Part shown: positions 10,392 through 34,010 of the stretch, piece after piece | Layout: each line of letters starts with the position of its first letter | Position numbering within the stretch: position 1 is the stretch's first letter | DNA from: a candidate division WOR-1 bacterium RIFCSPLOWO2_02_FULL_46_20 | GTDB taxonomy: Bacteria > Margulisbacteria > WOR-1 > O2-12-FULL-45-9 | Assembly (NCBI GenBank): GCA_001771365.1 | Contig: METP01000040.1 | Span: 1 to 60,935, forward strand | Length of the DNA stretch: 60,935 bases | Direction: 5' to 3' | Program-made: the position numbers and the translations under genes | The notes under the pieces: generated by a model | The model's input: only the letters and a program-made list of their open reading frames with translations | What the model was told of the DNA's origin: nothing | Databases searched by the model: none

Positions 10392-10397
10392 GCAACC

Positions 10398-10941: not shown

Positions 10942-11194
10942 TAACTTTATAAGCTTTTTCGGCTTTTTTGACGAATCCTAACCTGGTTCTGGCAAGTTCT
11001 TCAATCAACCTGTCGCCCTGCAACCTATTCAACCTATCGGTTAAATAATGATCCCGCTCGTTGCCCTGTTCGATATCAATCGTAACCCGTTGAATCTGTT
11101 GCTTTAATTCCAGATTATTCATTATATCCTGTCGGATAAAAAAAATAAAGTAAATGATAATCAGGATAAATAATATAAGACCTAATCTATTCAT
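10931..11194 (-). CDS. Septum formation initiator (FtsB/DivIC family)
   Basis: 87 aa with an N-terminal TM helix, a coiled coil, and the C-terminal ARTRLGFVKKAEKAY motif typical of FtsB/DivIC. Confidence 0.6.
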   Translation of the reverse strand: MNRLGLILFILIIIYFIFFIRQDIMNNLELKQQIQRVTIDIEQGNERDHYLTDRLNRLQGDRLIEELARTRLGFVKKAEKAYKVIGR

Positions 11195-11197
11195 TGA

Positions 11198-11989: not shown

Positions 11990-11993
11990 ATCC

Positions 11994-12022
11994 TTGACAT
12001 TAGAATACCGTGATTATATAGT
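11994..12022 (+). promoter_or_regulatory. Putative sigma-70 promoter of lipA (TTGACA-17 nt-TATAGT)
   Basis: TTGACA at 11994-11999, 17-nt spacer, TATAGT at 12017-12022, about 48 nt upstream of the lipA ATG. Confidence 0.5.
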
Positions 12023-12070
12023 AATTTAAGGCTGAAGTCAAAATCTGACGCCTCGAGGAAATAAGCAAAA

Positions 12071-14076: not shown

Positions 14077-15064
14077 ACCAATTATCGGTCTTACTATGGG
14101 AGATCCGGCTGGGATTGGCCCCGAAATCTGTGCTCGGGCGTTAACCAACTATGAAATCCAGGCCATTGCCAATTGTCTGATTGTCGGCGACCGCAAATCA
14201 ATCCGCGAAGGCATAAAAGTTTCCAAAATTCCTGACATTGAGATTAACTCTATTAATAATGTTTCTGAAGCAAAATTCCGCCGCGGCACGATTGACGTAT
14301 TAGATCTTAACAATGTAAACGTGTCACGCCTCAAGGTCGGACAGGTCTCAAAGGCGGCCGGCAAAGCCTCGGTTGAGTATATTGAAAAAGCAATCCAACT
14401 TGCTAAAGATGGAAAGATTGACGCTATGGTTACCGGACCGATAAATAAAGAAGCCGCGGCAAAAGCCGGTTGTAAATTCAAAGGGCACACTGAGCTTATC
14501 GCCGCCAGAACCAAGGCCAAAGAGTATGGCATGATGTTTGCTTCTGATTCCCTCTGGATCATGCTCGTTACCACCCACATACCGCTTAAGAATGTAAGTA
14601 AAAGTTTAAACATAAAGAATGTTTTAAGGGCGATCAAACTCGCCCACGAAACACTTTTAAAATCAAAAGGAAAAAAACCCAAAATCGGCGTCGCCGGGCT
14701 TAATCCTCACGCCGGAGAAGCCGGTTTATTTGGCAACGAAGAAATTAAAATTATAAAACCGGCGGTGGACGAGGCAAAAAAAATGGGCATTAATGTCAAA
14801 GGGCCGATATCTCCCGATGCCCTGTTCTATTTAGCCAACATCGGTATGTTTGACATTATCGTCGCCATGTATCATGACCAGGGGTTGATCCCACTGAAGC
14901 TGTTGTCTTTCAACCATTCAGTCAATGTTACTGTGGGTTTACCGATAATTCGAACCTCGGTTGATCATGGCACCGGTTTTGACATTGCCGGCAAAGGCTG
15001 GGCCAATCCCCAAAGCATGATTGAAGCGATTAAAGTTGCCGCCCATTTTGCCAAGACCAAATAA
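14069..15064 (+). CDS. pdxA: 4-hydroxythreonine-4-phosphate dehydrogenase
   Basis: Motifs GDPAGIGPEI, GLNPHAGE and VDHGTGFDIAGKG. The pdxA-rsmA gene order is conserved. Confidence 0.9.
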   Translation: MVKPIIGLTMGDPAGIGPEICARALTNYEIQAIANCLIVGDRKSIREGIKVSKIPDIEINSINNVSEAKFRRGTIDVLDLNNVNVSRLKVGQVSKAAGKASVEYIEKAIQLAKDGKIDAMVTGPINKEAAAKAGCKFKGHTELIAARTKAKEYGMMFASDSLWIMLVTTHIPLKNVSKSLNIKNVLRAIKLAHETLLKSKGKKPKIGVAGLNPHAGEAGLFGNEEIKIIKPAVDEAKKMGINVKGPISPDALFYLANIGMFDIIVAMYHDQGLIPLKLLSFNHSVNVTVGLPIIRTSVDHGTGFDIAGKGWANPQSMIEAIKVAAHFAKTK

Positions 15065-15903
15065 TGGTCGCGAGTCGCGAATCGCGAGTCCCCAGTCTGT
15101 CCCGGATAACAAAAGAGCTTCTGGCTAGTTACAATCGACATCCACGCAAACGTCTGGGCCAACACTTTCTAACCGACCCTCAAGTTTTACAAAGAATTAT
15201 CAACGCGGCAGAACTTGACATAGACGACCTGGTGATTGAGATCGGCTCCGGCCTTGGCGTCGTTACTTCAGAAATCGCTAAATTGGTCTATCATTTAGTC
15301 GCTATAGAAATTGACAAAGAATTACTAAAGATCAGCAAAGATGTGCTCAAGCTCTTTCACAATATCAGCTTTGAGCCCAAAGACATTTTAAAAATCGATC
15401 TCCATGAGCTGGCTCTGGGCAGGAAATATAAGATTATTGGCAATCTCCCCTATTATATTACTGCCCCAATAATAGAAAAGATTCTCGAGGCAAAAGATAA
15501 AGCAGAGTTAGCTGTGTTGATGGTACAAAAAGAAGTAGCTGAGAGGATGGCGGAGGCTCCCGGCTCAAAAAAATATGGCTCCTTTTCTGTTTTTGTGCAG
15601 TATCATGCTGAGGTTAAATTAAATTCTTTTGTCTCCAAATCTTCTTTTCTCCCCTGGCCGGAAGTTGGCTCTGCCCTTGTGGTTTTAAAACCCCACCAAA
15701 CACCAAAATACAAAGTTAAAGATGAAAAACTGTTTTTTGACATTGTCCATGCGGCTTTTCAACAGAGAAGGAAACAGTTGAGCAACTCCTTGTCCGAATT
15801 CAAGATTGAGGGAATTGATATTGATTTGAGCCGCAGGCCGGAAACTTTAGGCATTGATGAGTTTGTGAAAATCACCAATTACTGCTATAATCCATCGTCA
15901 TGA
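15064..15903 (+). CDS. rsmA: 16S rRNA (adenine1518/adenine1519-N6)-dimethyltransferase
   Basis: Motifs LGQHFL, EIGSGLG (SAM binding) and GNLPYYIT. The start overlaps the pdxA stop (TAATG). Confidence 0.9.
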   Translation: MVASRESRVPSLSRITKELLASYNRHPRKRLGQHFLTDPQVLQRIINAAELDIDDLVIEIGSGLGVVTSEIAKLVYHLVAIEIDKELLKISKDVLKLFHNISFEPKDILKIDLHELALGRKYKIIGNLPYYITAPIIEKILEAKDKAELAVLMVQKEVAERMAEAPGSKKYGSFSVFVQYHAEVKLNSFVSKSSFLPWPEVGSALVVLKPHQTPKYKVKDEKLFFDIVHAAFQQRRKQLSNSLSEFKIEGIDIDLSRRPETLGIDEFVKITNYCYNPSS

Positions 15904-15918
15904 TAACAAAAGCAAGTG

Positions 15919-17100
15919 TTATAGGTGCTGTTCTCGAAACGCTACAAAATGCCCATATGTTGGCTTCCAGACAAATGGGTAAACATACATGCGGTCCGGT
16001 TGTCCATAATCAATCACCAAAAGATCCGCATCTTCTTCTCCCTTCCAGCTACCACTGCTGAAATAGCGAACTCGGCCACCTAATTCTTCATCGTAGTAAA
16101 CTTTCTTAACAAGCTCATCAATCGTGAAAGAGAATCCTGCTCCATGGTCGTGTCCACGGATATAAATCATGGGCTTTTCCTTTGAGAATTGCTCCAGTCC
16201 CATCGACGCACGCCCTGTCTGACATTGTTTAAAAACCTCCCTGACCCTATCAAGCACCGCATCCTGCTTGTAAATTTTCCATTCATCACGACCGGTTCCT
16301 TGACTCTTTATGGCAAACCATAATCTCTCCGCCAGTTCCATCCAATGCATAAAATTGGGCCAAAGCCTGCTAAATATTTTCTTCTCCAAAAAAGTTAAAA
16401 CTTTGACAATCCTATCTCCGCTCTTTTTTCCTTTCACGCTATGACGATCGGCTTGATGCCCATGTTCAATATACACTTTTCCGTCAAAATAGGTCCCGGC
16501 TGGTGGCAAATAAACATTTAGTTGCAGTTTCTCTCTCCGACGGGCAACATCATCCAGGGCGCCATCATGGTTGCCAACAATCTGCAAAACTTTCGGCAAA
16601 AAATCAATTGCGTTCATAATAAGATGGTTCGCTGCCTGGATTTGGGGGAAGTTGGCTTTCCAGACAAGCAGGTCAAAATAATCTCCGTTATGAACAACAG
16701 GAGCCTGCAGCTTTCTGATTAGCCAGTATAAGCGCAACAAATCATCCGTGCGGGGGTGTGCCTCACCACGCATATGCACGTCAGAGATGACAAAAGCCAG
16801 CTTTGTTTCTTGTTCGGATGTTGGCTCCAGGGTAATCTCCCTGGAGGGCAAAACATTGATGGTATAAGGCGCGCAAAATCTGGGATCAAAAGAGCGACGA
16901 ATACCGCTCATAGATAATTTTCGTGCGTTCTGGATCTCTTCCTCTAGCAACCTAAGTTGAGCAATAGTCTGAGGATGTCTCTCCATTATCTTTGTCCTTG
17001 TAGCCTCCGCCCCTCTTTTGTTTAGATCACGCAGCATGCCGCCAGCCACAGCATCCAGGGCCCGCAGGCGGAGAAAAGGGTTAAAAACAAAGGTCTTCAC
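15919..17100 (-). CDS. Metallophosphoesterase (calcineurin/LpxH-like fold) with ~100-aa N-terminal extension
   Basis: Ordered metal-ligand motifs ISDVHM, NGDYFD, GNHDG, EHGHQ and RGHDHG. Confidence 0.75.
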   Translation of the reverse strand: MKTFVFNPFLRLRALDAVAGGMLRDLNKRGAEATRTKIMERHPQTIAQLRLLEEEIQNARKLSMSGIRRSFDPRFCAPYTINVLPSREITLEPTSEQETKLAFVISDVHMRGEAHPRTDDLLRLYWLIRKLQAPVVHNGDYFDLLVWKANFPQIQAANHLIMNAIDFLPKVLQIVGNHDGALDDVARRREKLQLNVYLPPAGTYFDGKVYIEHGHQADRHSVKGKKSGDRIVKVLTFLEKKIFSRLWPNFMHWMELAERLWFAIKSQGTGRDEWKIYKQDAVLDRVREVFKQCQTGRASMGLEQFSKEKPMIYIRGHDHGAGFSFTIDELVKKVYYDEELGGRVRYFSSGSWKGEEDADLLVIDYGQPDRMYVYPFVWKPTYGHFVAFREQHL

Positions 17101-17113
17101 TCTCCCAGGAAAG

Positions 17114-17413
17114 CTATGGGCAACAGCGGAGGCCTTTTTCTAGCTTAACAATAAACGCCCTGTTTTCTCCAAAAGAGAGCCGCCTCAAAAAGTTTTCTCC
17201 CCAGCCTACATTAGCTCTGGTCTGCACCCCATCTGGAGAATATAGCTTGTATCGTCTTTGAAAAAGTCTGTAGCCATTTGCGCCTACCACATGTCCAAGC
17301 CTCTTTGCCATAAGCAAATTATTTAAGCGGGCGCGCGCCTGCTGCTTTAATGATTTTACGTTTATCCTTCCCCCGTGTAGCTTTAATGTTGCTCGATTTA
17401 AAAAATATGCCAT
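17114..17413 (-). CDS. Hypothetical small basic protein
   Basis: 99-aa ORF, 13 nt upstream of and co-directional with the metallophosphoesterase gene. No motif recognised. Confidence 0.4.
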   Translation of the reverse strand: MAYFLNRATLKLHGGRINVKSLKQQARARLNNLLMAKRLGHVVGANGYRLFQRRYKLYSPDGVQTRANVGWGENFLRRLSFGENRAFIVKLEKGLRCCP

Positions 17414-17476
17414 ATTAGCTCCTCTTATCTATATAATTCGCCATTTTTAACTGATAATTTCACAATTTCCACTAAT

Positions 17477-17505
17477 TTGACTTTGCAAAACATTCTAACT
17501 ATAAT
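17477..17505 (+). promoter_or_regulatory. Near-consensus sigma-70 promoter of mdh (TTGACT-17 nt-TATAAT), implying a leaderless transcript
   Basis: TTGACT at 17477-17482, 17-nt spacer, TATAAT at 17500-17505. The best mdh ATG (17513) lies 7 nt after the -10 box. Confidence 0.55.
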
Positions 17506-17512
17506 GACCACT

Positions 17513-18439
17513 ATGAACGCTAAAATAAGCGTAATTGGCGCAGGAAACGTTGGCGCAGAGGTGGCCAGGCGGATCGTGGAAAAAGAGCTGGCCGACGTTG
17601 TACTGGTTGATATCATCGAAGGCATTCCCCAAGGCAAAGCCCTGGATATGCTCCAGGCTGGTCCGATTGTTGGCTACAACAGTATCATTACCGGGACCAA
17701 CGATTTCGCAGAGATTAAAGATTCACAAGTTGTCGTTGTCACTGCCGGTTTAGCCAGAAAACCCGGCATGAGCCGGGATGACCTGCTGCAGAAAAACGCC
17801 GCGATCGTTACCTCGGTTGTTGAGAATATCAAAAAGTATGCGCCGGATTCAATAATTTTAACCGTTACCAATCCCCTGGACACCATGACATATCTGGCCT
17901 GGAAAGTTTCTGGTTTCGCGCCAAACCGGATATTGGGCATGGCCCCCCTTCTGGATCTGGCCAGGATGTCGGCTTTTATCGCTATGGAGTTAAATGTGCC
18001 GGTTACTGAAGTTAAATCCATGGTCTTAGGAACACACGGAGATTTAATGGTCCCAGTCCCCAGCCAAACAACTGTCTCCGGCAAACCAATTTCAGAACTT
18101 ATATCCAAAGATAAAATAGACAAAATTGTAGACCGGACCCGCGATGGCGGGGCAGAGATTGTCGGTTATTTAAAAACCGGCTCAGCCTACTACGCCCCTT
18201 CAGCCGCGGCCGCTTATATGGTTGAAGCAATATTAAAAGATAAAAAAGAAATCATTTCGGCCTCTGTCTATGCCAACGGAGAATATGGGTTAAAAAATCT
18301 TTATATTGGTCTACCGGCAAAAATAGGCGAGAAGGGCGTTGAAAATATTGTTGAGATTAAGCTAACCATAGAAGAAAAACGAGCCCTGCAAAAGTCAGCT
18401 GAAGCCATACGAGAAAACAATGGCAAAATTATTCAATAA
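17513..18439 (+). CDS. mdh: Malate dehydrogenase (LDH-like, NAD-dependent)
   Basis: MNAKISVIGAGNVGA Rossmann start, TNPLD, and the catalytic His context LGTHGDLMVP. The tracked TTG start at 17477 coincides with the -35 box, so I prefer 17513. Confidence 0.88.
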   Translation: MNAKISVIGAGNVGAEVARRIVEKELADVVLVDIIEGIPQGKALDMLQAGPIVGYNSIITGTNDFAEIKDSQVVVVTAGLARKPGMSRDDLLQKNAAIVTSVVENIKKYAPDSIILTVTNPLDTMTYLAWKVSGFAPNRILGMAPLLDLARMSAFIAMELNVPVTEVKSMVLGTHGDLMVPVPSQTTVSGKPISELISKDKIDKIVDRTRDGGAEIVGYLKTGSAYYAPSAAAAYMVEAILKDKKEIISASVYANGEYGLKNLYIGLPAKIGEKGVENIVEIKLTIEEKRALQKSAEAIRENNGKIIQ

Positions 18440-22573: not shown

Positions 22574-25500
22574 TTAAAGGCTGATCTCAACGTTACCAGT
22601 GATATCGGTCAGGCGGTAATTTGGAGAAGAGCTAATCTCTCGATCGGCCCGCAGAGTCAGATCAACAAAATCGCTTAAAGCATATTTGGTTCTCAAAGAA
22701 TAGGCTGATTTCTCCGTTGTCGCTCCGGAATAAGATTTAGAATAAGTATACTCAAAATCAACGCGCAGTTTGTCGCCCAAATGGTAAATTATCCCGGCTC
22801 CCGGAGAAAATGTATAGGTTATCTGCGAAAGGAGATAATCTGTTGTCCGACTATAAGCTCCGGAAAGAGAAAATGTCCATATCTCCTGCGGGTTCCAGAT
22901 ACCCTTAAGGGCGGCGGTATGGGTTTTGGTATCGGTAAGGTTGGCCAAGGCCTCCATTGTTCCCTGATCGATTTTTTGATAGGTGTAACGCGAATCGATT
23001 GAAAATTTTTCAGAAAGAGAGCTCTTAATAACAGCCTCAAATTTATTCCCCACATCCCTCCCTTGAGTATAGGTATGGGGTTCCTGAGTCGAGGATAAAG
23101 TTCTTGAATCACCCTTTTCCACTAAATAGTTAAATTCCGTGGAAAGAATCTGAAAAGGGGCCATTTTTATGGTGTAAAGGATCGAATTGGTATCCAGGCT
23201 GTTCTCCTTAACCGCATAATTGGGAGAATCGCTTTTATAAATACTATAAGAGTTGCCCAACTTGTAAATTAAACCCAAGAGGGCGTATTGGACCGGGATT
23301 ATATTTATCTCCGCCTGCTGCTGTTCATTGTTATAACTTAACCCCTGGGTCCTAACAATGCGGGTAAAATTTGGCTTATATAAGTAACGTAAGCGTATGG
23401 CTTTAATCGGCCTATAATCAAGGGAAAATGATCCCGCTTGCTTAGAAACTGCTTCGGAAGTGGCTGAAAACTCTTCCAATACAGATGTAATAGTATATTT
23501 CCCGTCCGTTTTCAAGGTTTCATTGGGTTGAGCACGATATGACAGATCAAGCACGTCAGTGTTGCCTTGTAGGCTATCCACAATTTTGTTCAAAGAAGAA
23601 GAAACGAAATATTGTTTGGACGGCGTGGCAGACAAATTTAAGTTATAAGTGCGACGATATGGCTGCAACCCGCCGGGCTCCTGACGATTCTCCAGCTCAA
23701 CGTTTGAGGAAAAAGTAACCTTATCAAGCCCAACCGTTGCGACGCCAACATTCACCTTCCTATAATTAGTTGCTTCTTTCGTGAGTGAGCCGCTCAACCA
23801 TTTTTCAAGCGTCCCCTTTAGGCTTCCGGAAAGAAAGCCTATTTGATGGATCATCTCAGTAGAATTTTTCGTAATAACCCTCTTGATTGAACTGCCGGTT
23901 ACCGGATCATTGCTCTCATCGATTTCTGAAAAGTTGTATTCGAGTGACGGCAGCTGCTCCGGAATTAATTGAAAGCCGGCTGTTTTGTAAATATTTTCGT
24001 AAACAATTCCTCTTTGCGTGTATTTTTCATACCCATAATTACCCTTACCGCCAAAAAGAGAACCTGGCCGAAAGCTTAAAGTTCCACTATACTCCCAGAC
24101 GGCCTGTTTTGGCTCTGGCTCCGCGATAGGACGATAGCTAGAGCCAATCTTTTTCACATGCATATCAATGCCCAGTGGACCAAGAGTCGAATTAACGTTG
24201 AATTTCGCGGCTCTGCCGCTTTCCTTGGTTGAAGCGGCAGAAAGTATATTTAAATTATTGGCTGAATAGGCTATTTCACCATCAACGGCAATATTGTCCA
24301 AAATAAAGCTCCCATCTACGCCAACCACGGAGTGGCTTTGCGGATCAAAGGCCTCTTGGCTCATGCTGCTCCGAATTGTTTGCGCTCCGACAAAACTATC
24401 AGAATCGTCCAGGTAGGTTGCTCCGAGTTTAATGCCAGACCGGGGTTTAATAAATCCCCGCAAGCCGTATGTCGCATGCTGATAAACCGTTTGTCGGTAA
24501 TCATAGTAAATATTGAGAACGGATTTTGTATTAATAATCTTTTTAATAAAGGAGATTGTCCCTGCCTGATAATCAATCGTGTAATCTTCGCCGCGGCTTT
24601 GCAGGATACCGTCTAAATAAATTCTTTCGCTATCAATAACAACCGGTGAGTATCCCAGTTTGTACGGTCCCTGCGTCCCATCTCCATACATCCGGCTGAA
24701 TTTTGAATAGCCCTTGGGTGAAGAATAAAGCGCGGAGAACCCCCATTGACCATAATCTCCCCTAACTCTTGCCCCGGAGAGTACTTTGTTTAACTTTGCA
24801 AACTCGGCTTCAGTTAAGTCTGCGGTAAAATCACCCAGGTAGGCTTCTGTGCTGGCTCGCTTTAAAAGTATGGAGATTTTTTCTTCGTTTTCTCCAACCT
24901 GGGAAACTCCTATAGCATTAGTTTTATATAGAGTGGCATCAATATCCGTACCTGCCGTGCTGCCGGAAATATTCACACGCAAAGTTTCCTCTCTGCTTTG
25001 AGTAGTCCCTGCCGTATATCCCTCTTTTGAACCCTCCAGTGTGCGGGTTTTAAAACTGATGCTCTGGCTCCCTTTAATTACCAAAGGAGAGGCTTCCGGA
25101 CTCATAACCTCTCCTTCGGTACTAATCAACAACGATATTGTTTCTTCTTCTGCATCGACAGCTGACTCCTTGGCTTCCGTAAAGATAATATCTTCATAAA
25201 GTGAAACAATTGACTCCTCCTCAGCCGAAATCTTCTCTTTAAATGCCTGATACCAAACAACACTCTTTGACAAAACATGGCCAGGATATCTTATCCAAAC
25301 AACAAAAAAATGTCCGCCATCTTTATAATCGCCCGGAATTTCAAACTTGCCCCACCAATGCCCCTGGCGATATTCCATGGGAATTTTTAAATCGCGATCA
25401 GAATATATGGTTATCTTTTGGGCAGGCTTAAAGGTGCGCAGGCGTAACGTTATCGTTTCTCCAATGGCTGGCGGATAATCAGGATAGTAACTTAACCCAT

Positions 25501-25624
25501 ACTCGTCCGTATAAATTGATCTTTCGTAGAATAGATTTTTTGCCGTTTCTGCCCGTGCCGAAGCACAGACAAATATAACAATGATTGAAACAGTTAAAAC
25601 ATTCAATTTCCAAGGCATTCGCAT
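22574..25624 (-). CDS. Large secreted protein (1016 aa), putative outer-membrane beta-barrel with N-terminal Ig-like domain
   Basis: Signal peptide (VSIIVIFVCASARAE). The C-terminal ~800 aa is rich in alternating Y/T/S/G beta-strand-like segments (YTYSKSY, YSLRTKYALS). No named family recognised. Confidence 0.6.
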   Translation of the reverse strand: MRMPWKLNVLTVSIIVIFVCASARAETAKNLFYERSIYTDEYGLSYYPDYPPAIGETITLRLRTFKPAQKITIYSDRDLKIPMEYRQGHWWGKFEIPGDYKDGGHFFVVWIRYPGHVLSKSVVWYQAFKEKISAEEESIVSLYEDIIFTEAKESAVDAEEETISLLISTEGEVMSPEASPLVIKGSQSISFKTRTLEGSKEGYTAGTTQSREETLRVNISGSTAGTDIDATLYKTNAIGVSQVGENEEKISILLKRASTEAYLGDFTADLTEAEFAKLNKVLSGARVRGDYGQWGFSALYSSPKGYSKFSRMYGDGTQGPYKLGYSPVVIDSERIYLDGILQSRGEDYTIDYQAGTISFIKKIINTKSVLNIYYDYRQTVYQHATYGLRGFIKPRSGIKLGATYLDDSDSFVGAQTIRSSMSQEAFDPQSHSVVGVDGSFILDNIAVDGEIAYSANNLNILSAASTKESGRAAKFNVNSTLGPLGIDMHVKKIGSSYRPIAEPEPKQAVWEYSGTLSFRPGSLFGGKGNYGYEKYTQRGIVYENIYKTAGFQLIPEQLPSLEYNFSEIDESNDPVTGSSIKRVITKNSTEMIHQIGFLSGSLKGTLEKWLSGSLTKEATNYRKVNVGVATVGLDKVTFSSNVELENRQEPGGLQPYRRTYNLNLSATPSKQYFVSSSLNKIVDSLQGNTDVLDLSYRAQPNETLKTDGKYTITSVLEEFSATSEAVSKQAGSFSLDYRPIKAIRLRYLYKPNFTRIVRTQGLSYNNEQQQAEINIIPVQYALLGLIYKLGNSYSIYKSDSPNYAVKENSLDTNSILYTIKMAPFQILSTEFNYLVEKGDSRTLSSTQEPHTYTQGRDVGNKFEAVIKSSLSEKFSIDSRYTYQKIDQGTMEALANLTDTKTHTAALKGIWNPQEIWTFSLSGAYSRTTDYLLSQITYTFSPGAGIIYHLGDKLRVDFEYTYSKSYSGATTEKSAYSLRTKYALSDFVDLTLRADREISSSPNYRLTDITGNVEISL

Positions 25625-25697: not shown

Positions 25698-26567
25698 ATG
25701 TTTAAGGTAATTATTGCCATCATACTCCTGGTCTGCAGCTTAGCCAATAGTTCGCAGGCTGAATTTACTCAGGCAAAATTCACCAAATTGCGGCAAAAGC
25801 TCGACGCGCTTGTCCTCCCCTATGGTGTCAAAGTTGGCTTATGTTTTATAGACCTGCAAAACGGCAAAGAGCTCCAAATAAACGGCAAAAATAAATTCCC
25901 CGCAGCCTCTGTGGCTAAATTACCGGTTATGGCCACTGGTTTTCATTTGGCCGAATCGGGCAAATTGGATTTGGGCCAGAAAGTAAAATTTAAAGAAAAA
26001 GATAAGCTTGCTGGCTCTGGTGTTTTACGCTGGATGAAAGCAGGCAATGCGTATACCATCAAGAATCTAATCCGCCTAACTATCGTTTTATCAGACAATA
26101 CCGCCACCAGAATGGCCGTACGACAAATCGGCCTGGAAGAAATCAATAATTATCTGAAAAAATGCGGGCTGAACGATACTGTTATTGTCGACGACACCAT
26201 GCTCAACGACCCGGCCCTGACTCAAAATTATAATACTACAACCCCGTATGATATGGCCCGGCTAGTTGCCCTGATAAAAAATTCCGCTTATTTTAGCGCG
26301 GCATCAAAAAAACAAATGTTGGCTTACATGAAATTCCAACGCTATCGCTGGGGCCTCTGGAAAGGGGTGCCCAAAGGGATTAAAATCGCGAATAAAACGG
26401 GAAACCTGGACAGGGTGCTTAATGACGTTGGAATAGTTTATGCTCCATCCGGCAATTACGCGCTCGCAATCTTTACTCATGGCTTTCAAAAAAATAAAAC
26501 TGCCAGAAAAGTGATCAATGAAATATCAAAAGTTGTTTACACGGTTTTTGAATCTGCTAATAAATAG
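25698..26567 (+). CDS. Class A beta-lactamase-related serine hydrolase
   Basis: Signal peptide, S-x-x-K (SVAK), SDN (LSDNTAT) and KTG (NKTGN) motifs in canonical order. An extended -10 box TGATATAAT lies 9 nt upstream of the ATG. Confidence 0.8.
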   Translation: MFKVIIAIILLVCSLANSSQAEFTQAKFTKLRQKLDALVLPYGVKVGLCFIDLQNGKELQINGKNKFPAASVAKLPVMATGFHLAESGKLDLGQKVKFKEKDKLAGSGVLRWMKAGNAYTIKNLIRLTIVLSDNTATRMAVRQIGLEEINNYLKKCGLNDTVIVDDTMLNDPALTQNYNTTTPYDMARLVALIKNSAYFSAASKKQMLAYMKFQRYRWGLWKGVPKGIKIANKTGNLDRVLNDVGIVYAPSGNYALAIFTHGFQKNKTARKVINEISKVVYTVFESANK

Positions 26568-26602: not shown

Positions 26603-28048
26603 CTATTTGCTTTGTAGTCCCTCACCCTTTTTTATAAGACTCGCATTAATATTATCCTCGCCCTGATTAATGGCCTGGGTCACGGCCATATCACACAACT
26701 CGAGCGATAAGCGGGGGTTTCCCATTGAAACCTCAAAAATCTTTTCCAGCGCCGAAGCGGTAAAGGGATGGGTCCCTTTCCCCCCCGCATCTTCAACTCG
26801 GGCAATTAGCAAAGTCTTAAGATCATCAAAATCCAAGTTATCCAAAGAAATATTCAGAACCAGGCGTTCATAAAGCGGCTTTATCTCATTTTTTAATTTA
26901 TAAACAGTTTCTGGCAGACCGGCCATAACCAAAATCACATTATCCATATCACCCAATGTGCGCAAGGGATGCTCCATTTCGGCCGTAAACTCGTGCGCTT
27001 CGTCCAATAGCAAGACCAGATTTTTCCCCATTTTCTTGCGTAAACTGTCCAAATAGTAGATATTATATTCGGTTTTATCGTCTGTTTTATGGCCCATGCT
27101 GCTAATAATAAACTTGAGTAATTGGCTAAATTCCTGAGGCGGGCGCGAAAGATAGACAGGGTGTAACGCTTGAGGGAGATAGGCGCCTAACCAGCGCAAC
27201 AAAGTTGTCTTGCCACTTCCCAAAGGCCCCACCACCAAGATGTGGCCGCTGCGTGAGCTGATTTTTTCCAATATCTGCTTAACTTCTTTTTTGTATCCAG
27301 TAAAAAGTTCCGGATGACAATCCAGAGTAAACGGATTATTATGCCAACCCATTTTGTCGTACCAGATCTTTTGTTCTTCGGAAACCGCCTGCCACATCTT
27401 TAGCCCTACCCGCGCGCCGCAATGCGGACAGAATTCCTCATTGGCCGGAAGCTTGGCTTTGCACTTGAAGCAAACAAGCTTGCGTGTGCTTCGGCCAAAG
27501 ATTTTATCTATAGCTCCCTTTATAAAAATAATTAAAAACACCAGGAAAACAACCGAAGCTATCCCGCCCAACAAAGTTACTCCAAAAACACCAATGTATG
27601 GCTGCCACCAGGAGCGGGCTTCTTGTTCCTTTATCTTGGACTGGATCATGGTTACATAAGACAAGGCCTCATTATTTTCAGAATCAAGCTCCAAAATCTT
27701 TGTAAAAGCTGCCAGGGCTTTCTCCAGGGCGGCTTCTTGAAAGGCCCCTTTCCCCTCGGCCAAATATTTATCGATTTCCTCAGTTTCTTTTACTCGAGTC
27801 TTGATTGAAACCACATTTGTTTCGCGAAGAATACTATTCTTCAGCTCCAAAGCTTCTTTATGCTTGGGATCAATTTTTAAAGTGGCGGAAAGGTTTTTTA
27901 AAGCCCCCTTCAGATCTCCGCTGATATACTGGATCGCGGCTTTATTAAAATATTCTTGTGCCGCGGTCGGCTTGCCAAAACTGGCTGATTGAATAGAGAA
28001 AAATAAAACAGAGGCAATAATTAAGATGCTCTGAATTGTTCTCGCCAT
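26603..28048 (-). CDS. Membrane-anchored TPR - TM - zinc-ribbon - AAA ATPase (ExeA/MshM-like)
   Basis: Signal-like N-terminus, TPR-like helices (aa ~30-140), a TM helix (GVFGVTLLGGIASVVFLVFLIIFI), a zinc ribbon CFKC...CPHC, Walker A GPLGSGKTT and Walker B LLLDEAH. Confidence 0.75.
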   Translation of the reverse strand: MARTIQSILIIASVLFFSIQSASFGKPTAAQEYFNKAAIQYISGDLKGALKNLSATLKIDPKHKEALELKNSILRETNVVSIKTRVKETEEIDKYLAEGKGAFQEAALEKALAAFTKILELDSENNEALSYVTMIQSKIKEQEARSWWQPYIGVFGVTLLGGIASVVFLVFLIIFIKGAIDKIFGRSTRKLVCFKCKAKLPANEEFCPHCGARVGLKMWQAVSEEQKIWYDKMGWHNNPFTLDCHPELFTGYKKEVKQILEKISSRSGHILVVGPLGSGKTTLLRWLGAYLPQALHPVYLSRPPQEFSQLLKFIISSMGHKTDDKTEYNIYYLDSLRKKMGKNLVLLLDEAHEFTAEMEHPLRTLGDMDNVILVMAGLPETVYKLKNEIKPLYERLVLNISLDNLDFDDLKTLLIARVEDAGGKGTHPFTASALEKIFEVSMGNPRLSLELCDMAVTQAINQGEDNINASLIKKGEGLQSK

Positions 28049-28746
28049 TAGAGTTTCCTTTTCTTGGCCTTTATTACCATGTCTAGCCTGCTTAGCATTG
28101 TTTTTATTTCCATGCTGTCTGGATACGTTCTGAATATGGCCAACAACTGCGCCCTGGCTTTTTCATATTCCTGCCCGGCTATATATTGTCTTACAACTGG
28201 CAGAAAATGAACCAAACTAACCGGCCCTTTCGGTTTAGCCACAGATTTCTTCCGCGGAACAACCTTTTTACCAGGCTCAACTTTGGAACCAACAACCGGC
28301 TCCTTCAGAACGCTTGCCTCAGCCGTGGGTATTTTAACTAACTTCTCTGTCAATTCAACTTCGGTTGTAGGCCCTAAGCCAATGAGCGTTACCAAAGCCG
28401 GCTCACCGACGTAAAAAGGCTGGGTTTCACCCTCAAAAATTTTTCCCTCAATATCAGTGGCAGTAAGTTTAGCATGATAGGTTCCTTTTTTAAAGCCATA
28501 GGGGATTTCCCAATGGCTATGCCAGGTATAGGTTCTTCGCTCAAAACTCAGTTTAATTCTTTCGCCATCTGGCATGGCGGCGATAACTTGGGTGGTATCT
28601 ATCGGCGCCCCCACCACAACATGCACCACATCACCCGGCAAATAAACCTTTAGCCCTGGGTTATATCGTGGATTTTCAAATTCCTCTTGAGGGTAAACAG
28701 GAATAATCAACAAGAAAACAAAACAAAGTATAACAAAATATCTCAT
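28048..28746 (-). CDS. Secreted hypothetical protein (Ig-like N-terminal domain, helical C-terminus)
   Basis: Signal or anchor sequence (FVILCFVFLLIIPVYP). The WEIPYGFKKGTY segment resembles FEIPGDYKDGGH in the 1016-aa protein. Its stop shares one nt with the downstream ATG (TAATG). Confidence 0.55.
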   Translation of the reverse strand: MRYFVILCFVFLLIIPVYPQEEFENPRYNPGLKVYLPGDVVHVVVGAPIDTTQVIAAMPDGERIKLSFERRTYTWHSHWEIPYGFKKGTYHAKLTATDIEGKIFEGETQPFYVGEPALVTLIGLGPTTEVELTEKLVKIPTAEASVLKEPVVGSKVEPGKKVVPRKKSVAKPKGPVSLVHFLPVVRQYIAGQEYEKARAQLLAIFRTYPDSMEIKTMLSRLDMVIKAKKRKL

Positions 28747-28749
28747 TAA

Positions 28750-29754
28750 TTACCGCACTTCTCCCTCAAGCGCTAATGTCGGTTTGCCGTTTATTGAAAA
28801 AGAGACATAACTGGTTGCCAGGCCAGGATCATTATAATAGGCATGGTAAGCATAATCTACTCGAAAACCAGCAGTTCCAAGCGATACTCCCGCCGATGGG
28901 TTCCAATTAGTTTGCGTGCCGGAGGATGCGTCAACACTCTGGTCCATCCCTGCTCTTAGCATAAAAAATTCATTCATTTTATATTCGGCACCTATGTGCA
29001 TGGTGACCGGCCGCCCGCTTTGCACTGGCAGATCGGCATCGTAGGCAATTAAAAGTTTATTCCCGAATCGCATTGGCTTGACGGCTATGCCAACTTTGTG
29101 CACGCTGGCGATGGCCTCTTCCGCACCACTTGAGTATCGCACCACTCCTCCCAAATCTACCGGAAGAAAATTCTGGCGGTTATAGCCAAAACTCAAATAA
29201 GGGTTATATATATATTTTATGCCAAAGTCTGAGCTCCAGCCGGTAGAAGTCTGTGTCGCCCCACCTGTCCAACCGCGGCTAAAATATTTTAGGTTTATGC
29301 CAAAAAAGACATTTCGGGAATATCCAAAAAATCTTGCCAGGGGGGTGCTGTAAGTTAAAACAAAAAGCGTATCATGATAATCGGCGAAAACACCCGTGGA
29401 ACCAACAAAAGTTAATACCTGGCTAACGCCGGTATTTACAAAACCCGCTCCCACCACCCCAAAAGAGCCAGGGATAACACCACAGTATTCAGTATAGTAA
29501 ACATCCCCCAAAAGATTTGTGTACATTGTCATCGCCTGAGGAGCTTTAATAGCCGCTATCCCTGCCGGATTTATAAAGGCGCCATCTGCATCATCAGCTA
29601 TGGCGGTATTTGCTCTGCCCATGCCCAAAGGCCGCGCCCCCCCACCAATGATCATTGGATCATCTGTTGTACCCACAATAGCGGAAATTGCCGGACAACT
29701 CCCAAAAGCAAGCAAGGTAAGCACCACCATAAAAACAATTGCTAAACGTATCAC
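28750..29754 (-). CDS. FadL/PorV-like outer-membrane beta-barrel protein
   Basis: Signal peptide, then the hatch motif GGGARPLGMGRANTAIADDADGAFINPAGIA (compare FadL [24 protein letters not shown]). Alternating aromatic beta-strands run to the C-terminus. Confidence 0.65.
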   Translation of the reverse strand: MIRLAIVFMVVLTLLAFGSCPAISAIVGTTDDPMIIGGGARPLGMGRANTAIADDADGAFINPAGIAAIKAPQAMTMYTNLLGDVYYTEYCGVIPGSFGVVGAGFVNTGVSQVLTFVGSTGVFADYHDTLFVLTYSTPLARFFGYSRNVFFGINLKYFSRGWTGGATQTSTGWSSDFGIKYIYNPYLSFGYNRQNFLPVDLGGVVRYSSGAEEAIASVHKVGIAVKPMRFGNKLLIAYDADLPVQSGRPVTMHIGAEYKMNEFFMLRAGMDQSVDASSGTQTNWNPSAGVSLGTAGFRVDYAYHAYYNDPGLATSYVSFSINGKPTLALEGEVR

Positions 29755-30890
29755 TGATGTATCACCCCATATTTCATCTGCTTAATAAATTCTTTCTGGC
29801 CATCAACTACGCGATAAATGCGAACAAAATAAACTCCGGCTCCAGCCACTGATTTAAAGGAGGTAATGCCATTCCAAACTACATTGTTTTCGCCGGCCTG
29901 CCCACCCTCGCTTCCCATGGGCAAAACTGTGGACCAAATCATTTCTCCTCTCATGGTGAAAACTTGAATCATAATCTCTGCATCCTGACTTAATTCGTAG
30001 GAAATACTGGCGGCCGCCGCTGGTATTTCGCCTTCAGGCATGCCAGGGATAGCCGTTGGTTTTGATATCTGGGCTTCCACCTCAAGCACCTCTTTTTCAA
30101 CTTTAAACCCTTCACTAAGGCTCCCACCTTTACCATCCTCATTTTCTACCTTAACATCCCAACGTCCGGCGGCTTTGCCTGTCAGATCAAACTGACAGGT
30201 GATCTTAGTTGACGATTTAACCACAATATTTGTGCCAATTATATCGCCCTCACCAGGCTTAGACAACATAGCCCTTGCCCCACTAATAAAATATTTTCCG
30301 GAAATTTCAACAGCGACATTACCGGTATCGTAGGCTTTTTTAGGGGTGATTCCTCCTACCTCCGGCCCACGATGACGTATATCTAAAGCAAGAGGCAGTG
30401 TGCCAGAGCGTCCATCAGGATTAGTTATGGTAATGCTCCACAATCCTTTTGTAACATCAGTTATATCAAAGAGACAAGTGATCTTGGTGGTGCTATGAAC
30501 TGTTACATTTGTGGCGGCAATATCTGCTTCCCCGGATGAGCTCAACTTTAAAGTCGCACCATCGACAAAATTATATCCGTTGACCGTAAGCGAAACTGAA
30601 CCATCATTTACCGCAGACTGCGGCCCAATTGACGTAATGTTGGGGGCTAGAATTACCAATGAGAGGCGAACACATTTTAAAAATCCTTCGCCGATTTTAT
30701 AATTTGAGTTGTAAGGTTCCCCCAAACGGAGCCCACGGGCAATCCCCCGAAGACTAAATGACGTTGAAGTGCCGACAGCTGTACCCGCGCCAAAAGCCTG
30801 GGCAGTAAGCTTATAACTAGTACTGTTACTTACCGCAAAAGAAGCACCACACCAAAGTATGGCTAAAACAATTAATACAGTTTTTTTCAT
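29751..30890 (-). CDS. Cell-surface protein: two IPT/TIG Ig-like repeats plus a FlgD-Ig / T9SS-CTD-like C-terminal domain
   Basis: Signal peptide and two ~85-aa repeats (ITSIGP...SLTVNGYNF...TKITCLFD...ITITNPDG, and ITPKK...AVEISGKYF...TKITCQFD...VKVENEDG). The C-terminus reads ISYELSQDAEIMIQVFTMRGEMIW...VVWNG...GVYFVRI. Confidence 0.7.
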   Translation of the reverse strand: MKKTVLIVLAILWCGASFAVSNSTSYKLTAQAFGAGTAVGTSTSFSLRGIARGLRLGEPYNSNYKIGEGFLKCVRLSLVILAPNITSIGPQSAVNDGSVSLTVNGYNFVDGATLKLSSSGEADIAATNVTVHSTTKITCLFDITDVTKGLWSITITNPDGRSGTLPLALDIRHRGPEVGGITPKKAYDTGNVAVEISGKYFISGARAMLSKPGEGDIIGTNIVVKSSTKITCQFDLTGKAAGRWDVKVENEDGKGGSLSEGFKVEKEVLEVEAQISKPTAIPGMPEGEIPAAAASISYELSQDAEIMIQVFTMRGEMIWSTVLPMGSEGGQAGENNVVWNGITSFKSVAGAGVYFVRIYRVVDGQKEFIKQMKYGVIHQ

Positions 30891-33844
30891 TTACCCGCCT
30901 TGGTTTGTTCTAATGCCGCGACTTTAGCAGATAACTCTTCAATTTTTTTCTGCTGTTCCTGAACAGTTTTAGCCAGCAACGCGGTTAAGTGTCCGTAAGA
31001 AACACTTAAATCTCCTTCCTCTCCATGGACAACTTCTGGAATTACTTCCTTCAGTTCTTGAGCGACAAACCCAATGTCAGCTTGGCCGGATTCTGTCCAC
31101 TGATAGTTAACCGGCCGCAACTTCATAAGCTCTTCTGTTCCATAATTAATAGCGCTAATATTAGTTTTTTTTGAGCGGTCCGAAGCATCTGTAAAAACTC
31201 CAGCCGCAGTCAGTTTTGCGCCTGAGTCGTCATAGATAGAATCGCCTGTACCGGCATTGTTTATCTCCAGGGCATACAAATTATTGGTGGCGTCATCGTA
31301 ATCTATCAGCACCCCTTTTGCGTTTGCGGCATTAGCTACTTCTACTTCTAGCCTGGCAAATGGTTCTATTGTCCCTATGCCTACTTGACCTAGGCTGTTT
31401 ATTCTCATTCTCTCAACAGCCGCAGCTTCGTTTCTCATCGTATGAAATACTAACGCGCCATCAGTTGAGCCATCGGTAGCGTCTTCCAACACTGCTCCAA
31501 TAGCGGCGATATTTTCTCTTTCATTCCCTCCGGTCTTATCGTTTTCCTGCCGGAAAGTTAATAGCGGGCCAGACCCAATAGCCGCTGTCCCTGTGACGGC
31601 ATGAGTGATTCCTGTTATCTTACTTAAACTGCTATTATTGCCATCATTACCAGCTATTTCAAACTTGGAATCAGGTATGCTAGTACAAAATCCCATTACG
31701 CCTGAAACCGGGTTCAACATTAAAAAGGTATTACCACCATCTCCTATCCAGATATTCTCGGCTACTCCGCTACCCCCCTTCTCTGTCAATATCTGAAAAG
31801 TACCGCCTGTAGTGTAAAACCTGAGTCTTTCGTAATTAGTCGTTTCATCTGCTGTGCCATACATGTATATGTCACTTGATAGCAGGTTGTATTTTAGAAT
31901 TCCTGTTGGGTCTATTTCTAAATTGCCGGAACTACCCACTTCAAAACTAACATAGTTACTCGCATCGTATCCAAGTCTCAATTGTTCAGTTGTACCAATA
32001 ACATGTAAAGCGGCTAAAGGCGCCGCCGTCCCGATACCGACGCTATCTGCAGATCCATCAACAAACAAAGTATTAGCATCAAAGTTCACATCATAGTCGT
32101 TTTGGGTTACTTCTAAAGTCGTATCCAGGGTTATAGTGTCAGCAAGCTGGGCAGCATTTATGGTATCAGCAGCAATAGCGCCAGAAGTTACTACCCCGGT
32201 CCCAAAATCTGCGGCAGCAATAGTTCCATCAACTATCTTGGCTGAAGTTACACTATTATCTCCAACAACTACAGCGGTTAAATTGGAACCATCCACTGCC
32301 GGCAGCCTGGCGCTTCCATCCAACTGTACAATTTTGCTTGCTGTTGTACCCACATCAACTGCTAAAGCAGATCCATTGCCTCCTGTTAATCCAGTTCCGG
32401 CAACATCGCTGCCTAATTTCGCGGCAGTTACGCTCGTCGCGGCTAACTGGGCTGTCCCGACGCCCCCCGCATCAATTGAGATTGTTCCGGTTGCGGTTAT
32501 TGGCCCGCCGATTAATCCGGTTCCGGTACTAACCGAAGTCACAGTTCCACTTGTTCCAGCTGCAGCAGTAATCTGAGTTGTTCCATCCGGGAATTTGATC
32601 CCGCCAGTTCCTTTAGATTCAATGGTTCCCGCAACTGTGAGCTTCGAAGCTGGCTCCGCGGTACCGACGCCAACTTTATTTGCCCCCGCATCAACATAAA
32701 GCGTATCCATATCCACTGCCATGGTTCCGGTTACGGTAAGGTCGCTCGGAAAAGTATAAACCCCGGCACCAAAGGTGCCAGTTGTAACATTGGCCGCCGC
32801 CAGGCTGGATATTGAAAGATTGAGTAATTGACTCCCATCCACTACCGGCAGCCTGGCGCTTCCATCTAACTGTATAATCTGACTTGCTCCAGTTCCTACG
32901 TCCAGTCTTGCGGTAGGAATAGTCCCTGCTCCAGAAGGTATGTTGGCCAACGAGGTTAAGGCTGCACCTGATACTTTCCCAGCTGTCGAGATCGTTGCTA
33001 ATTTAGTATCTACAATAGCCGCACCGGCATTAATATCCGCATTAACAATCTCTCCATCCAGTATCTTTACCGAGGTTACCGCATTGGTAGCAATCTTGGT
33101 CGCAATTATTCCATAGTCCGCAATTTGAGCAGTCCCCAAGTTTGTAAGATTTGCTCCATCAAGATTACTAAAATAAGCAGATGACAAAGCTGGAATTTTG
33201 CCTGTAGCAGAATCAATAGCCGCCACACTTAACTTGGCTGCGGTTACGGCTTCATTAGTAATCATGCCAGTAGTAATTGTCAAAGCATCAGAAGCATCTG
33301 CTTGATGTGAGGAAGCATGTGCCCCGGGAAGAATAGTTCCGATCACCTTACTCCCGGACAGAGAGACAATTTTGGCGTCCGTCACTGAAGAGTCGGCAAG
33401 TTTGGCGGTCGTAACCGCTTTATCAGAGATTTTAGCAGTACTAATTGAACCATCATCAACACTATCCGCCAGGGCTGATCTAAAAGCGTACCCTACCGAA
33501 ACAAGCTGGGTGCGCGGACTTAGGGTTTCATCTCCGATAGAAACCTCAATATATCTGGAGGAAGCGCTAAAAACACCTGAAGATAAAGCCGTAGCACCGC
33601 CTAGAAGAACACTGAAGACGCCCTGGCTATCGGGGGTAACGCTGTGGCTTTCTGGCCCCCAAAGTTTATTTCCGTCCGTAGCAGCGTCATAAAGGCTAAA
33701 ACTTATGGTTTTCGCGCTGGTGATAGCGGTGCCACTGGCATCAGTCAACCTCCCTTCATATGAAATTTTTTCAGGCACCGCCCCCCACCCCACACCCATT
33801 ACCACCAAACTAGAAATCAAGAAACAAAAAATTCTCTTTAACAT
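30887..33844 (-). CDS. Secreted tail-fibre-like protein with C-terminal peptidase-S74 intramolecular chaperone domain
   Basis: Signal peptide; many A/T/G/S/V-rich repeats (..AVT.AKLA..SVT.AKI..); a duplicated QLDGSARLP[AV]VDGS module. The last ~98 aa (SDRSKKTNISAINYG...LRPVNYQW...IGFVAQELKEVIPEVV...VSYGHLTALLAKTVQEQQKKIEEL) match the autoproteolytic chaperone domain. AAGGAGG lies upstream of the ATG. Confidence 0.8.
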   Translation of the reverse strand: MLKRIFCFLISSLVVMGVGWGAVPEKISYEGRLTDASGTAITSAKTISFSLYDAATDGNKLWGPESHSVTPDSQGVFSVLLGGATALSSGVFSASSRYIEVSIGDETLSPRTQLVSVGYAFRSALADSVDDGSISTAKISDKAVTTAKLADSSVTDAKIVSLSGSKVIGTILPGAHASSHQADASDALTITTGMITNEAVTAAKLSVAAIDSATGKIPALSSAYFSNLDGANLTNLGTAQIADYGIIATKIATNAVTSVKILDGEIVNADINAGAAIVDTKLATISTAGKVSGAALTSLANIPSGAGTIPTARLDVGTGASQIIQLDGSARLPVVDGSQLLNLSISSLAAANVTTGTFGAGVYTFPSDLTVTGTMAVDMDTLYVDAGANKVGVGTAEPASKLTVAGTIESKGTGGIKFPDGTTQITAAAGTSGTVTSVSTGTGLIGGPITATGTISIDAGGVGTAQLAATSVTAAKLGSDVAGTGLTGGNGSALAVDVGTTASKIVQLDGSARLPAVDGSNLTAVVVGDNSVTSAKIVDGTIAAADFGTGVVTSGAIAADTINAAQLADTITLDTTLEVTQNDYDVNFDANTLFVDGSADSVGIGTAAPLAALHVIGTTEQLRLGYDASNYVSFEVGSSGNLEIDPTGILKYNLLSSDIYMYGTADETTNYERLRFYTTGGTFQILTEKGGSGVAENIWIGDGGNTFLMLNPVSGVMGFCTSIPDSKFEIAGNDGNNSSLSKITGITHAVTGTAAIGSGPLLTFRQENDKTGGNERENIAAIGAVLEDATDGSTDGALVFHTMRNEAAAVERMRINSLGQVGIGTIEPFARLEVEVANAANAKGVLIDYDDATNNLYALEINNAGTGDSIYDDSGAKLTAAGVFTDASDRSKKTNISAINYGTEELMKLRPVNYQWTESGQADIGFVAQELKEVIPEVVHGEEGDLSVSYGHLTALLAKTVQEQQKKIEELSAKVAALEQTKAGK

Positions 33845-34010
33845 ATTTATCGGCCTCCTTTAATTTGACTTACTTACATGATACGCGCGAATTTTTATCA
33901 ACTACATGAAATCTTTGCACGCACCTCTACTTTTGTCAATATACAGCTTATCGGCAATACGCAATATAGACATCGACAACACAAAGTGGTCTACGAAGTT
34001 TACGAAGCAG

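Follow-up and report, generated by a model that had tools for sequence, protein, structure and literature searches.

ATPases of the ExeA type are helpers of secretins; ExeA is paired with ExeB, and MshM of the MSHA pilus is linked to a tetratricopeptide repeat (TPR) partner, MshN. In the system for type IX secretion (T9SS) of Flavobacterium, a cargo gene has the gene for its cognate shuttle barrel behind it, and in five operons the TPR-containing tether PorE is encoded next (PMC12618676). For the mosaic adhesive trimer (MAT) fibres of Bdellovibrio, the surface element that binds the conserved N-terminal domain was left unidentified in the paper describing them (PMC10769870). Here we analyse a 60,935-nucleotide (nt) stretch of contig METP01000040.1 from a candidate division WOR-1 bacterium (hereafter, the window), in which one operon encodes a fibre protein (P1), an immunoglobulin (Ig)-domain protein (P2), an outer-membrane barrel (P3), a periplasmic protein (P4) and an inner-membrane ATPase (P5). 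The Ig protein and the barrel are most likely T9SS-like cargo and shuttle parts, in a combination that is apparently undescribed. We lean towards regarding the operon as one form of a module, confined to Margulisbacteria and Saganbacteria, by which large proteins are mounted on the outer membrane.

A preliminary description, made from the sequence alone, had proposed five coupled open reading frames (ORFs) on one strand, and an ORF listing of the window confirmed all five on the minus strand at the positions it gave:

30887-33844, minus strand: P1, 985 amino acids (aa), MAT-type fibre
29751-30890, minus strand: P2, 379 aa, candidate adaptor
28750-29754, minus strand: P3, 334 aa, PorV/PorQ-like outer-membrane barrel, GTG start
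28048-28746, minus strand: P4, 232 aa, periplasmic protein
26603-28048, minus strand: P5, 481 aa, inner-membrane ATPase protein
33845-33862, minus strand: ribosome-binding site AAGGAGG, 8 nt 5' of the P1 ATG, read from the sequence

P1 and P2 overlap by ATGA, a 3-nt gap (TTA) separates P3 from P4, and P4 and P5 meet at TAATG, as had been described; the P2/P3 overlap, also given before as ATGA, is instead GTGA, with GTG as the P3 start codon. A perfect AAGGAGG precedes P1 only, in agreement with the same description, and partial Shine-Dalgarno-like strings lie before P3 (GGGGTGA), P4 (GAGGGAG) and P5 (AAGGAAA). Scans for sigma-70 promoters, terminators and sigma-54 promoters returned matches at chance level only, so that only the gene spacing argues for a single transcription unit. 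One N-terminal hydrophobic segment is present in each of P1 to P4, and P5 has an N-terminal segment and a second at residues 150-186 followed by basic residues, in line with the envelope targeting proposed for all five products.

Related loci, given here by L numbers, were gathered by exact protein look-up and with sequence patterns for the ATPase, the P1 N-terminal domain (N-domain) and the barrel, and the window proteins were then searched against all of them. About 78 strong homologues of the P5 ATPase were found, the named ones mainly from Margulisbacteria/Margulisiibacteriota and Saganbacteria. P2-P3-P4-P5 stand in the same order and on the same strand, mostly overlapping or abutting, on over 20 independent contigs (Margulisiibacteriota, Saganbacteria, WOR-1), and nearly all of these cassettes adjoin a gene for a large fibre with the P1 N-domain. 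The genes flanking this cassette vary between loci, and the housekeeping neighbours are not conserved with it. The arrangement lies far beyond chance, which refutes the random adjacency that the preliminary description had named as a possible objection; the five genes are a real conserved envelope module. A protein with the P1 N-domain is encoded just upstream of P2 in the window and in L042-L044 (WOR-1/Saganbacteria), and just downstream of P5 in L001, L003, L008, L010 and L196. In L197 an S74 fibre precedes P2, as in the window. Several genomes hold at least two cassettes, in tandem in L014 and as the pairs L017 and L151 or L001 and L160; such multiple cassettes within a genome, with a giant fibre of its own next to each, suggest an attachment toolkit. 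Margulisbacteria include ectosymbionts that attach to other cells.

P3 carries the N-terminal motif GGGARPLGMGRA...FINPAG and aligns with positions 9-325 of the 326 in the NCBIfam model PorV_fam (NF033709; E = 8e-21), at 75 bits against a cut-off of 90. Barrels from the related loci L020 and L025, 25-28% identical to P3, score 120 and 127 bits with the same model and so exceed the cut-off. When a profile of 14 P3 orthologues was compared with the PDB, the only match was PorV of Flavobacterium johnsoniae (6H3I_F, E = 1.6e-5), and no FadL chain was among the matches at E<=1. The FadL model Toluene_X (PF03349) reaches 17.2 bits against a cut-off of 29.7, over residues 44-76 only. By these comparisons P3 is best placed in the PorV/PorQ family and not in FadL; the preliminary description had offered both, and the PorV half of that call is favoured whereas the FadL half is not. 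Its other domain calls, namely S74, TIG, AAA_22, TPR and zinc ribbon, were borne out. Public records give the components no names other than 'hypothetical protein', 'AAA family ATPase/ExeA', 'long-subunit fatty acid transport protein' or 'PorV/PorQ family protein'.

P2 begins with a signal peptide and continues with a motif that we call P2N, two TIG/Ig domains and a C-terminal domain (CTD) resembling the type-A CTD of the T9SS. The TIG match (E = 2e-5) lies above the Pfam cut-off, and the two TIG-type Ig domains also match the 'choice-of-anchor Z' repeat. An AlphaFold2 model of P2, with a mean predicted local distance difference test score (pLDDT) of 81, contains three confident Ig-like domains; P2N is predicted to be disordered in P2 modelled alone, with pLDDT below 50 at residues 15-77 and above 90 in the rest of the protein. 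The two ends of the protein are located as follows:

30651-30839, minus strand: P2N motif, residues 18-80, repeated S-x-S/N-Y/F-x-L units and a terminal GEGFL
29754-30017, minus strand: C-terminal beta-sandwich of P2, residues 292-379, T9SS type-A CTD/FlgD_ig-like, pLDDT ~90

The T9SS sorting-domain model TIGR04183 matches nine of ten P2 orthologues at E<0.05 (best E = 9e-6), Por_Secre_tail (PF18962) matches six of the ten, and the C-terminal region of the PorU model matches eight; P2 of the window itself scores 15.1 bits with TIGR04183, below the cut-off of 23. A P2 profile gave weak IPT/TIG matches only among PDB sequences. Foldseek with the P2 model returned generic tandem-Ig matches only, PorU coming second at a TM-score of 0.25, which is not decisive. 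To judge from their sequences, P2 and P3 look like a T9SS cargo/shuttle pair.

The opposite end of P2 points to the fibre. P2N recurs in proteins of 160-250 aa from Zixibacteria and Ignavibacteria whose only other parts are a signal peptide and dockerin repeats, and the genes for these proteins sit right behind fibre genes with a MAT-type N-domain. A genome scan with the dockerin-type motif alone yielded 77 new loci. Of the 61 motif genes with enough upstream sequence, 47 have the end of a MAT-N fibre gene immediately upstream, and only 6 of 62 have one that starts immediately downstream. No barrel or ATPase occurs as a same-strand neighbour in any dockerin-type motif locus. This linkage to a fibre without barrel or ATPase indicates that fibre and motif protein form an older and wider two-gene unit. 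The motif appears to travel with the fibre, its anchoring end being exchangeable (dockerin elsewhere, Ig spacers and a CTD here), and a constant motif end combined with a variable other end is the pattern expected of an adaptor that grips the fibre base on one side and a local anchor on the other. P2 is probably such an adaptor, tying P1 to the barrel. It had been described as an Ig-fold adhesin; the Ig domains are there, and the CTD-like end together with P2N makes an adaptor or anchor the better reading than an independent adhesin. A relationship of P2N to PamT (NF058579), the tip protein of a chaperone-usher-like donor-strand pilus in the candidate phyla radiation, was set aside: the similarity, which covers the signal peptide and first strands in P2N and in two of the dockerin proteins, amounts to 15-18 bits against a cut-off of 240 and is too weak.

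P1 is predicted to comprise a signal peptide, a conserved N-domain, a beta-helical shaft and, at its C-terminus, a self-cleaving chaperone of the S74 type. Its two terminal parts lie at:

33440-33781, minus strand: P1 N-terminal domain, residues ~22-135, NCBIfam Bdello_MAT_N
30890-31183, minus strand: P1 S74 intramolecular chaperone/autoprotease, residues 888-985, PF13884

The Pfam family Peptidase_S74 (PF13884) is matched at E = 1e-12 and 48.6 bits (cut-off 22), and its catalytic motif SDxxxK is present as SDRSKK at residues 888-893. Bdello_MAT_N (NF053851) is the only NCBIfam model matched by the first ~135 residues (E = 7e-10, domain residues 14-89), at 39 bits and below its cut-off of 60. 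Two stretches of the shaft match Bdellovibrio MAT fibres in the PDB, residues 384-451 with Bd2133 (8OND, E = 1.2e-9) and residues 584-683 with Bd3182 (8OJN, E = 0.002). P1 resembles the Bdellovibrio proteins in having a signal peptide, a probable conserved N-domain of their type (~130 aa), a Bd2133/Bd3182-like shaft and an S74 end with SDxxxK. It differs from them in that its N-domain match falls below the NCBIfam cut-off, its host is not a known predator, and its gene stands in an operon with candidate anchoring parts, which is not reported for Bdellovibrio. The combination of a C-terminal S74 domain with a beta-helical shaft is likewise that of S74 phage fibres and spikes such as the K1F endosialidase and the T5 L-shaped fibre, and residues 381-982 match PHROGs tail-fibre families; what sets P1 apart from those proteins is its Sec signal peptide, its cellular N-domain and its chromosomal, non-phage context.

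The N-domain is the part common to the cassette-adjacent fibres and the fibres of other phyla. A pattern scan found it in 30 loci across phyla, and in P1 it is 44-61% identical to the N-termini of giant cassette-flanking proteins in L001, L003, L008, L010 and L012. Beyond it, the cassette fibres are entirely unlike one another, with lengths between 600 and over 3800 aa. No relative of either the P1 N-domain or the P2N motif turned up when 2.9 million viral contigs were scanned with sequence patterns. In three of the giant paralogues, collagen-like Gly-X-Y runs follow directly behind the N-domain (L001 from 11436, L010 from 2969, L012 at 10380-18350), which fits a trimeric stalk.

P4, which matches no known family, has a signal peptide and an Ig-like beta-sandwich (residues 34-121); a disordered Lys/Pro-rich linker spans residues 125-175, and three TPR-like helices (182-231) form the C-terminus. 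Its AlphaFold2 model has a mean pLDDT of 66. The P4 family has just 73 representatives among 1.84 billion cluster representatives, which marks the cassette as rare and limited to Margulisbacteria/Saganbacteria lineages. P5 runs from a signal-like N-terminus through periplasmic TPR helices (30-140), a transmembrane (TM) helix (~150-178) and a cytoplasmic zinc ribbon (193-210, with CFKC at 193 and CPHC at 207) to an AAA_22 ATPase (234-472) with Walker A GPLGSGKT at 274 and Walker B VLLLDE at 345. The zinc-ribbon and Walker motifs are invariant or nearly so across 27 homologues. AAA_22 (PF13401) is matched at E = 2e-13 and 51 bits against a cut-off of 27, as befits an ATPase of the GspA/ExeA type, and the JGI label for P5 homologues is 'type II secretory pathway predicted ATPase ExeA'. 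A P5 profile matched TPR repeats in the PDB and, weakly, the RadA zinc ribbon and a Cdc6-type ATPase, with no ExeA/GspA chain. Among NCBIfam models the best score for the ATPase domain goes to TIGR03015, the XrtA/PEP-CTERM-associated ATPase, at 74.6 bits against a cut-off of 324.5; a stand-alone WOR-1 ATPase aligns with it end to end at 220 bits, also below the cut-off. The resemblance to the XrtA system stops at that ranking: all scores fall short of 324.5 bits, and the window yielded neither an exosortase nor a PEP-CTERM protein.

Like GspA and ExeA, P5 is a membrane-anchored AAA_22/COG3267 ATPase with an NPF-containing segment before Walker A and a periplasmic protein-interaction domain, and like MshM and MshN it joins an ATPase to a TPR part and occasionally lies inside a pilus-like cluster. 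Unlike GspA and ExeA, it is built in reverse, with the periplasmic domain N-terminal and the ATPase C-terminal; that domain is TPR, not peptidoglycan-binding (Pfam finds no PG_binding match in P5), and a zinc ribbon is added. Its gene partner also differs, being a PorV-like barrel, and neither a secretin nor GspB is present among the scanned window ORFs. L021 9803-11197 and L022 2150-3553, on contigs binned as Methanobacteriota and Altiarchaeota, encode proteins of 464-467 aa that combine a TM helix and a zinc ribbon with an ExeA-like ATPase and share 44% identity with residues 192-472 of P5; neither has a PorV-like neighbour. Either the module occurs in archaea or these contigs are mis-binned.

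Genes with receiver (REC) domains, or two-component gene pairs, are repeatedly found next to the cassette (L018 2879-3283, L042 14676-16169 and the flanks of L196-L198). The WOR-1 loci have P4, a P5-like TPR-TM segment and a REC domain in one fusion protein, with the ATPase as a separate gene; the REC fusion hints at phosphorylation control of the module. SLH-domain proteins are encoded near the cassette in L197 (11683-16391), on a Margulisiibacteriota contig. They fit an outer membrane that SLH domains tie to the peptidoglycan, the arrangement of Cyanobacteria and Negativicutes, and such tethering may explain the Negativicutes labels on some of these metagenome-assembled genomes.

A second, simpler type of locus in the same phyla (L160, L163/L020, L023, L025/L162 and L018) reveals what the cassette has in common with its relatives. 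L160 belongs to the same genome as L001, and the L018 contig starts inside the barrel gene, its cargo lying outside the view. In L160, L163, L025 and L023 the upstream gene encodes a surface protein of 1085-1619 aa that ends in a clear T9SS-type CTD; the L163 protein reaches the PF18962 cut-off of 27 with 27.4 bits. The stop codon of the cargo gene overlaps the start of a PorV_fam barrel gene (120-127 bits) whose product has a C-terminal TPR domain, and the third gene encodes a TPR-TM-zinc-ribbon-AAA_22 ATPase. A CTD surface protein, a PorV-like barrel and a TPR-linked ExeA-like ATPase are thus the invariant core. Because P4 is fused to TPR-TM segments at some loci and the barrel to a TPR domain at others, barrel, P4 and P5 are tied together through their TPR parts. 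A CTD protein followed by a PorV-like barrel occurs without the ATPase in L158 (Saganbacteria) and L174 (Elusimicrobia). In L160 (Margulisiibacteriota; 305-2922 and 10321-12939) the trio lies between two pseudopilin genes and a PilM-PilN fusion with a gene like that for M of the type II secretion system (T2SS), and genes for a T2SSE ATPase and a prepilin peptidase are found close to the L005 cassette.

The core invites comparison with T9SS operons. As in the T9SS pairs of PorV with type-A CTD cargo, PorU with PorV and PorZ with PorQ, a PorV/PorQ barrel gene stands directly behind the gene for a CTD-like protein; as in the cargo/SprF-like shuttle/PorE operons of F. johnsoniae, there is one barrel gene per cargo gene and a TPR-bearing envelope partner in the operon. 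Unlike the T9SS, these genes occur in phyla outside the Bacteroidota/FCB (Fibrobacterota-Chlorobiota-Bacteroidota) group, with no T9SS core gene seen in the scanned ORFs and flanks, and P1, the main cargo of the window, lacks a CTD and is apparently carried by an adaptor. The Flavobacterium operons also use PorP/SprF-type dedicated shuttles and type-B CTDs, whereas the barrel here is PorV/PorQ-like and the CTD type-A-like; their envelope partner is the peptidoglycan-binding lipoprotein PorE, whereas here it is an inner-membrane ATPase. No description of the module combination appeared in the literature found on PorV with Margulisbacteria, on PorV2, on FilD, or on secretion systems and T9SS in these phyla. 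The earlier statement that the combination was not recognised as a named system agrees with this, although it is not unrelated to known systems, as it parallels T9SS operons and borrows a GspA/ExeA-type ATPase.

From the gene linkage, the family assignments, the predicted topology and the intact catalytic motifs, we infer how the parts may touch, what ATP may do and that the fibre comes to lie beyond the outer membrane. All five products would enter the periplasm via Sec. The CTD of P2 would dock on P3, by analogy with the CTDs of PorU and PorZ on PorV and PorQ, and P2N would bind the conserved N-domain at the base of a trimeric P1 fibre. P1 would trimerise with the help of its S74 chaperone, which would then cleave itself off at Ser888. 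The fibre would stand on the cell surface, P1 held by P2 and P2 by P3. P4, with its Ig and TPR parts, and P5 would bridge the inner membrane to the barrel through TPR contacts and may use ATP to assemble or release the barrel-cargo complex.

Several observations weigh against a module of this kind. In the window, P3, the P2 CTD and the P1 N-domain all score below their NCBIfam cut-offs (75 against 90, 15 against 23 and 39 against 60 bits). P1 has no CTD of its own. The cassettes of L005 and L013 lack P2, and some cassettes have no recognisable fibre nearby, L009 having a CTD protein instead. The P4 model gives no fold match at E<=1e-3, no resemblance to GspB/OutB and no functional clue. No secretin occurs among the scanned window ORFs or in any flank of the related loci. 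No protein of the five looks like a translocon with the width to pass a folded fibre, which leaves the export step without a candidate among them; of the secretion and anchoring module originally proposed, the conserved surface-fibre part holds and the secretion part is conjectural, as none of them resembles a known translocon.

A broader proposal, which we advance tentatively and regard as possible at best, is that these lineages have no T9SS translocon, that the trio is a self-contained ATP-driven outer-membrane display or secretion system of an undescribed kind, and that P2N is the general anchor partner of MAT-type N-domains, including those of Bdellovibrio. Such a trio could be a relative or a forerunner of the T9SS shuttle step. 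At this locus a barrel of the PorV/PorQ type and a sorting domain like that of the T9SS occur in phyla that are sister to Cyanobacteria and are joined to a type II secretion-type ATPase, which bears on the origin of the T9SS shuttle and attachment parts and on whether they can work without the proton-driven T9SS motor. It also supplies a concrete candidate for the open question of what holds the conserved N-domain of MAT fibres on the Bdellovibrio surface.

The strongest competitor to the outer-membrane mounting module is an ordinary T9SS sub-module. A complete T9SS (SprA/Sov, PorKLMN) would then lie elsewhere in the genome, with P2 and the larger CTD proteins as cargo, P3 as a dedicated PorV/PorQ shuttle and P4/P5 as PorE-like tethers. 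The matches to T9SS-type CTDs and to the PorV/PorQ family are what this predicts, and a cargo gene followed by its cognate shuttle and sometimes by PorE is an established T9SS operon design. We nevertheless consider it rather unlikely. A Pfam scan of ~36 larger ORFs of the window found no T9SS core gene, secretin, sortase or phage gene, so that the absence of these genes asserted in the preliminary description for the whole 60 kb holds for the ORFs scanned; no T9SS core gene was present in the Pfam-annotated 20-kb flanks of related loci either. Reviews, in the excerpts available, confine the T9SS to the Bacteroidota/FCB superphylum, and no paper was found that links it to these phyla. Further, no ExeA-like gene adjoins the PorV relatives of Balneolales and of other lineages that have a T9SS. 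Were a T9SS present in the genome, the operon would be a cargo-dedicated shuttle module with an unusual ATPase tether; were it absent, the trio would amount to a separate kind of display system.

The ATPase and TPR parts might instead belong to a type IV pilus or T2SS-like machine, comparable to GspA/GspB or MshM/MshN, that exports or positions the CTD protein and its barrel. The ExeA/GspA type of P5 suits such an assignment, as do the pilus and T2SS-like genes around the L160 trio (pseudopilins, PilM-PilN, T2SS-M-like) and the L005 cassette (T2SSE ATPase, prepilin peptidase). In the window and at most loci, however, no pilus genes lie near the cassette, no flank contains a secretin, and the topology of P5 is the reverse of that of ExeA, with TPR in place of a peptidoglycan-binding domain. 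This makes a pilus or T2SS origin improbable.

Incidental adjacency, with P3 as a FadL-type channel for hydrophobic compounds and P5 as an unrelated STAND/AAA or defence ATPase, could draw on the weak Toluene_X match, on the JGI name 'long-subunit fatty acid transport protein' for one orthologue and on weak nSTAND matches in P5; it is very hard to sustain given that Toluene_X stays below its cut-off, that the PorV_fam E-value is better by ~17 orders of magnitude and that strict synteny, translational coupling and gene fusions extend over more than 20 loci. A defence-system reading was rejected, there being no meaningful PADLOC match. Scarcely credible, finally, is a prophage or tailocin remnant with P1 as tail fibre and the downstream genes as phage accessory or assembly functions: P1 does match 20 PHROGs families, of which 15 belong to the tail category, and mainly through the shaft and S74 end, but P2, P3 and P4 match none and P5 only generic AAA+ families, P1 to P4 have signal peptides and P5 a signal-like N-terminus, housekeeping genes surround the operon, the cassette keeps to chromosomal contexts where it is conserved, and the P1 N-domain and P2N are absent from the viral contigs scanned.

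The remainder of the window is of housekeeping character (RuvC/RuvA, FtsK, H+-pyrophosphatase, CstA, rpoN and two activators, phosphoenolpyruvate carboxykinase (PEPCK), acetate kinase and signal peptidase), and base composition is uniform along the 60 kb. Next to the operon, a class A beta-lactamase-family gene with a signal peptide (25698-26567, plus strand) lies between the P5 stop codon and a gene for a 1016-aa signal-peptide protein (22574-25624, minus strand); it is on the strand opposite to the operon, and its adjacency to the cassette is not conserved elsewhere. The 1016-aa protein has only a weak DUF7840 match and no convincing family, and may be a large outer-membrane protein. The stop codon of its gene overlaps the start of ruvC, and ruvA comes next. 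As a translocon candidate it was rejected for want of co-conservation with the cassette.

The rpoN gene and two sigma-54 activator response regulators occupy 5874-10391 (plus strand); upstream of P1 there is no above-chance match to a sigma-54 promoter. L005 shares with the window the synteny of PEPCK, rpoN, activators, aminotransferase and PdxA, and its P3-P4-P5 cassette is inserted beside rpoN. Farther away, a 1141-aa protein (48752-52177, plus strand) has as its sole recognisable part a RelA/SpoT-like nucleotidyltransferase region at residues 584-708, and a gene at 2635-3759 (plus strand) encodes a protein with Fic/DOC and DUF4172 domains.

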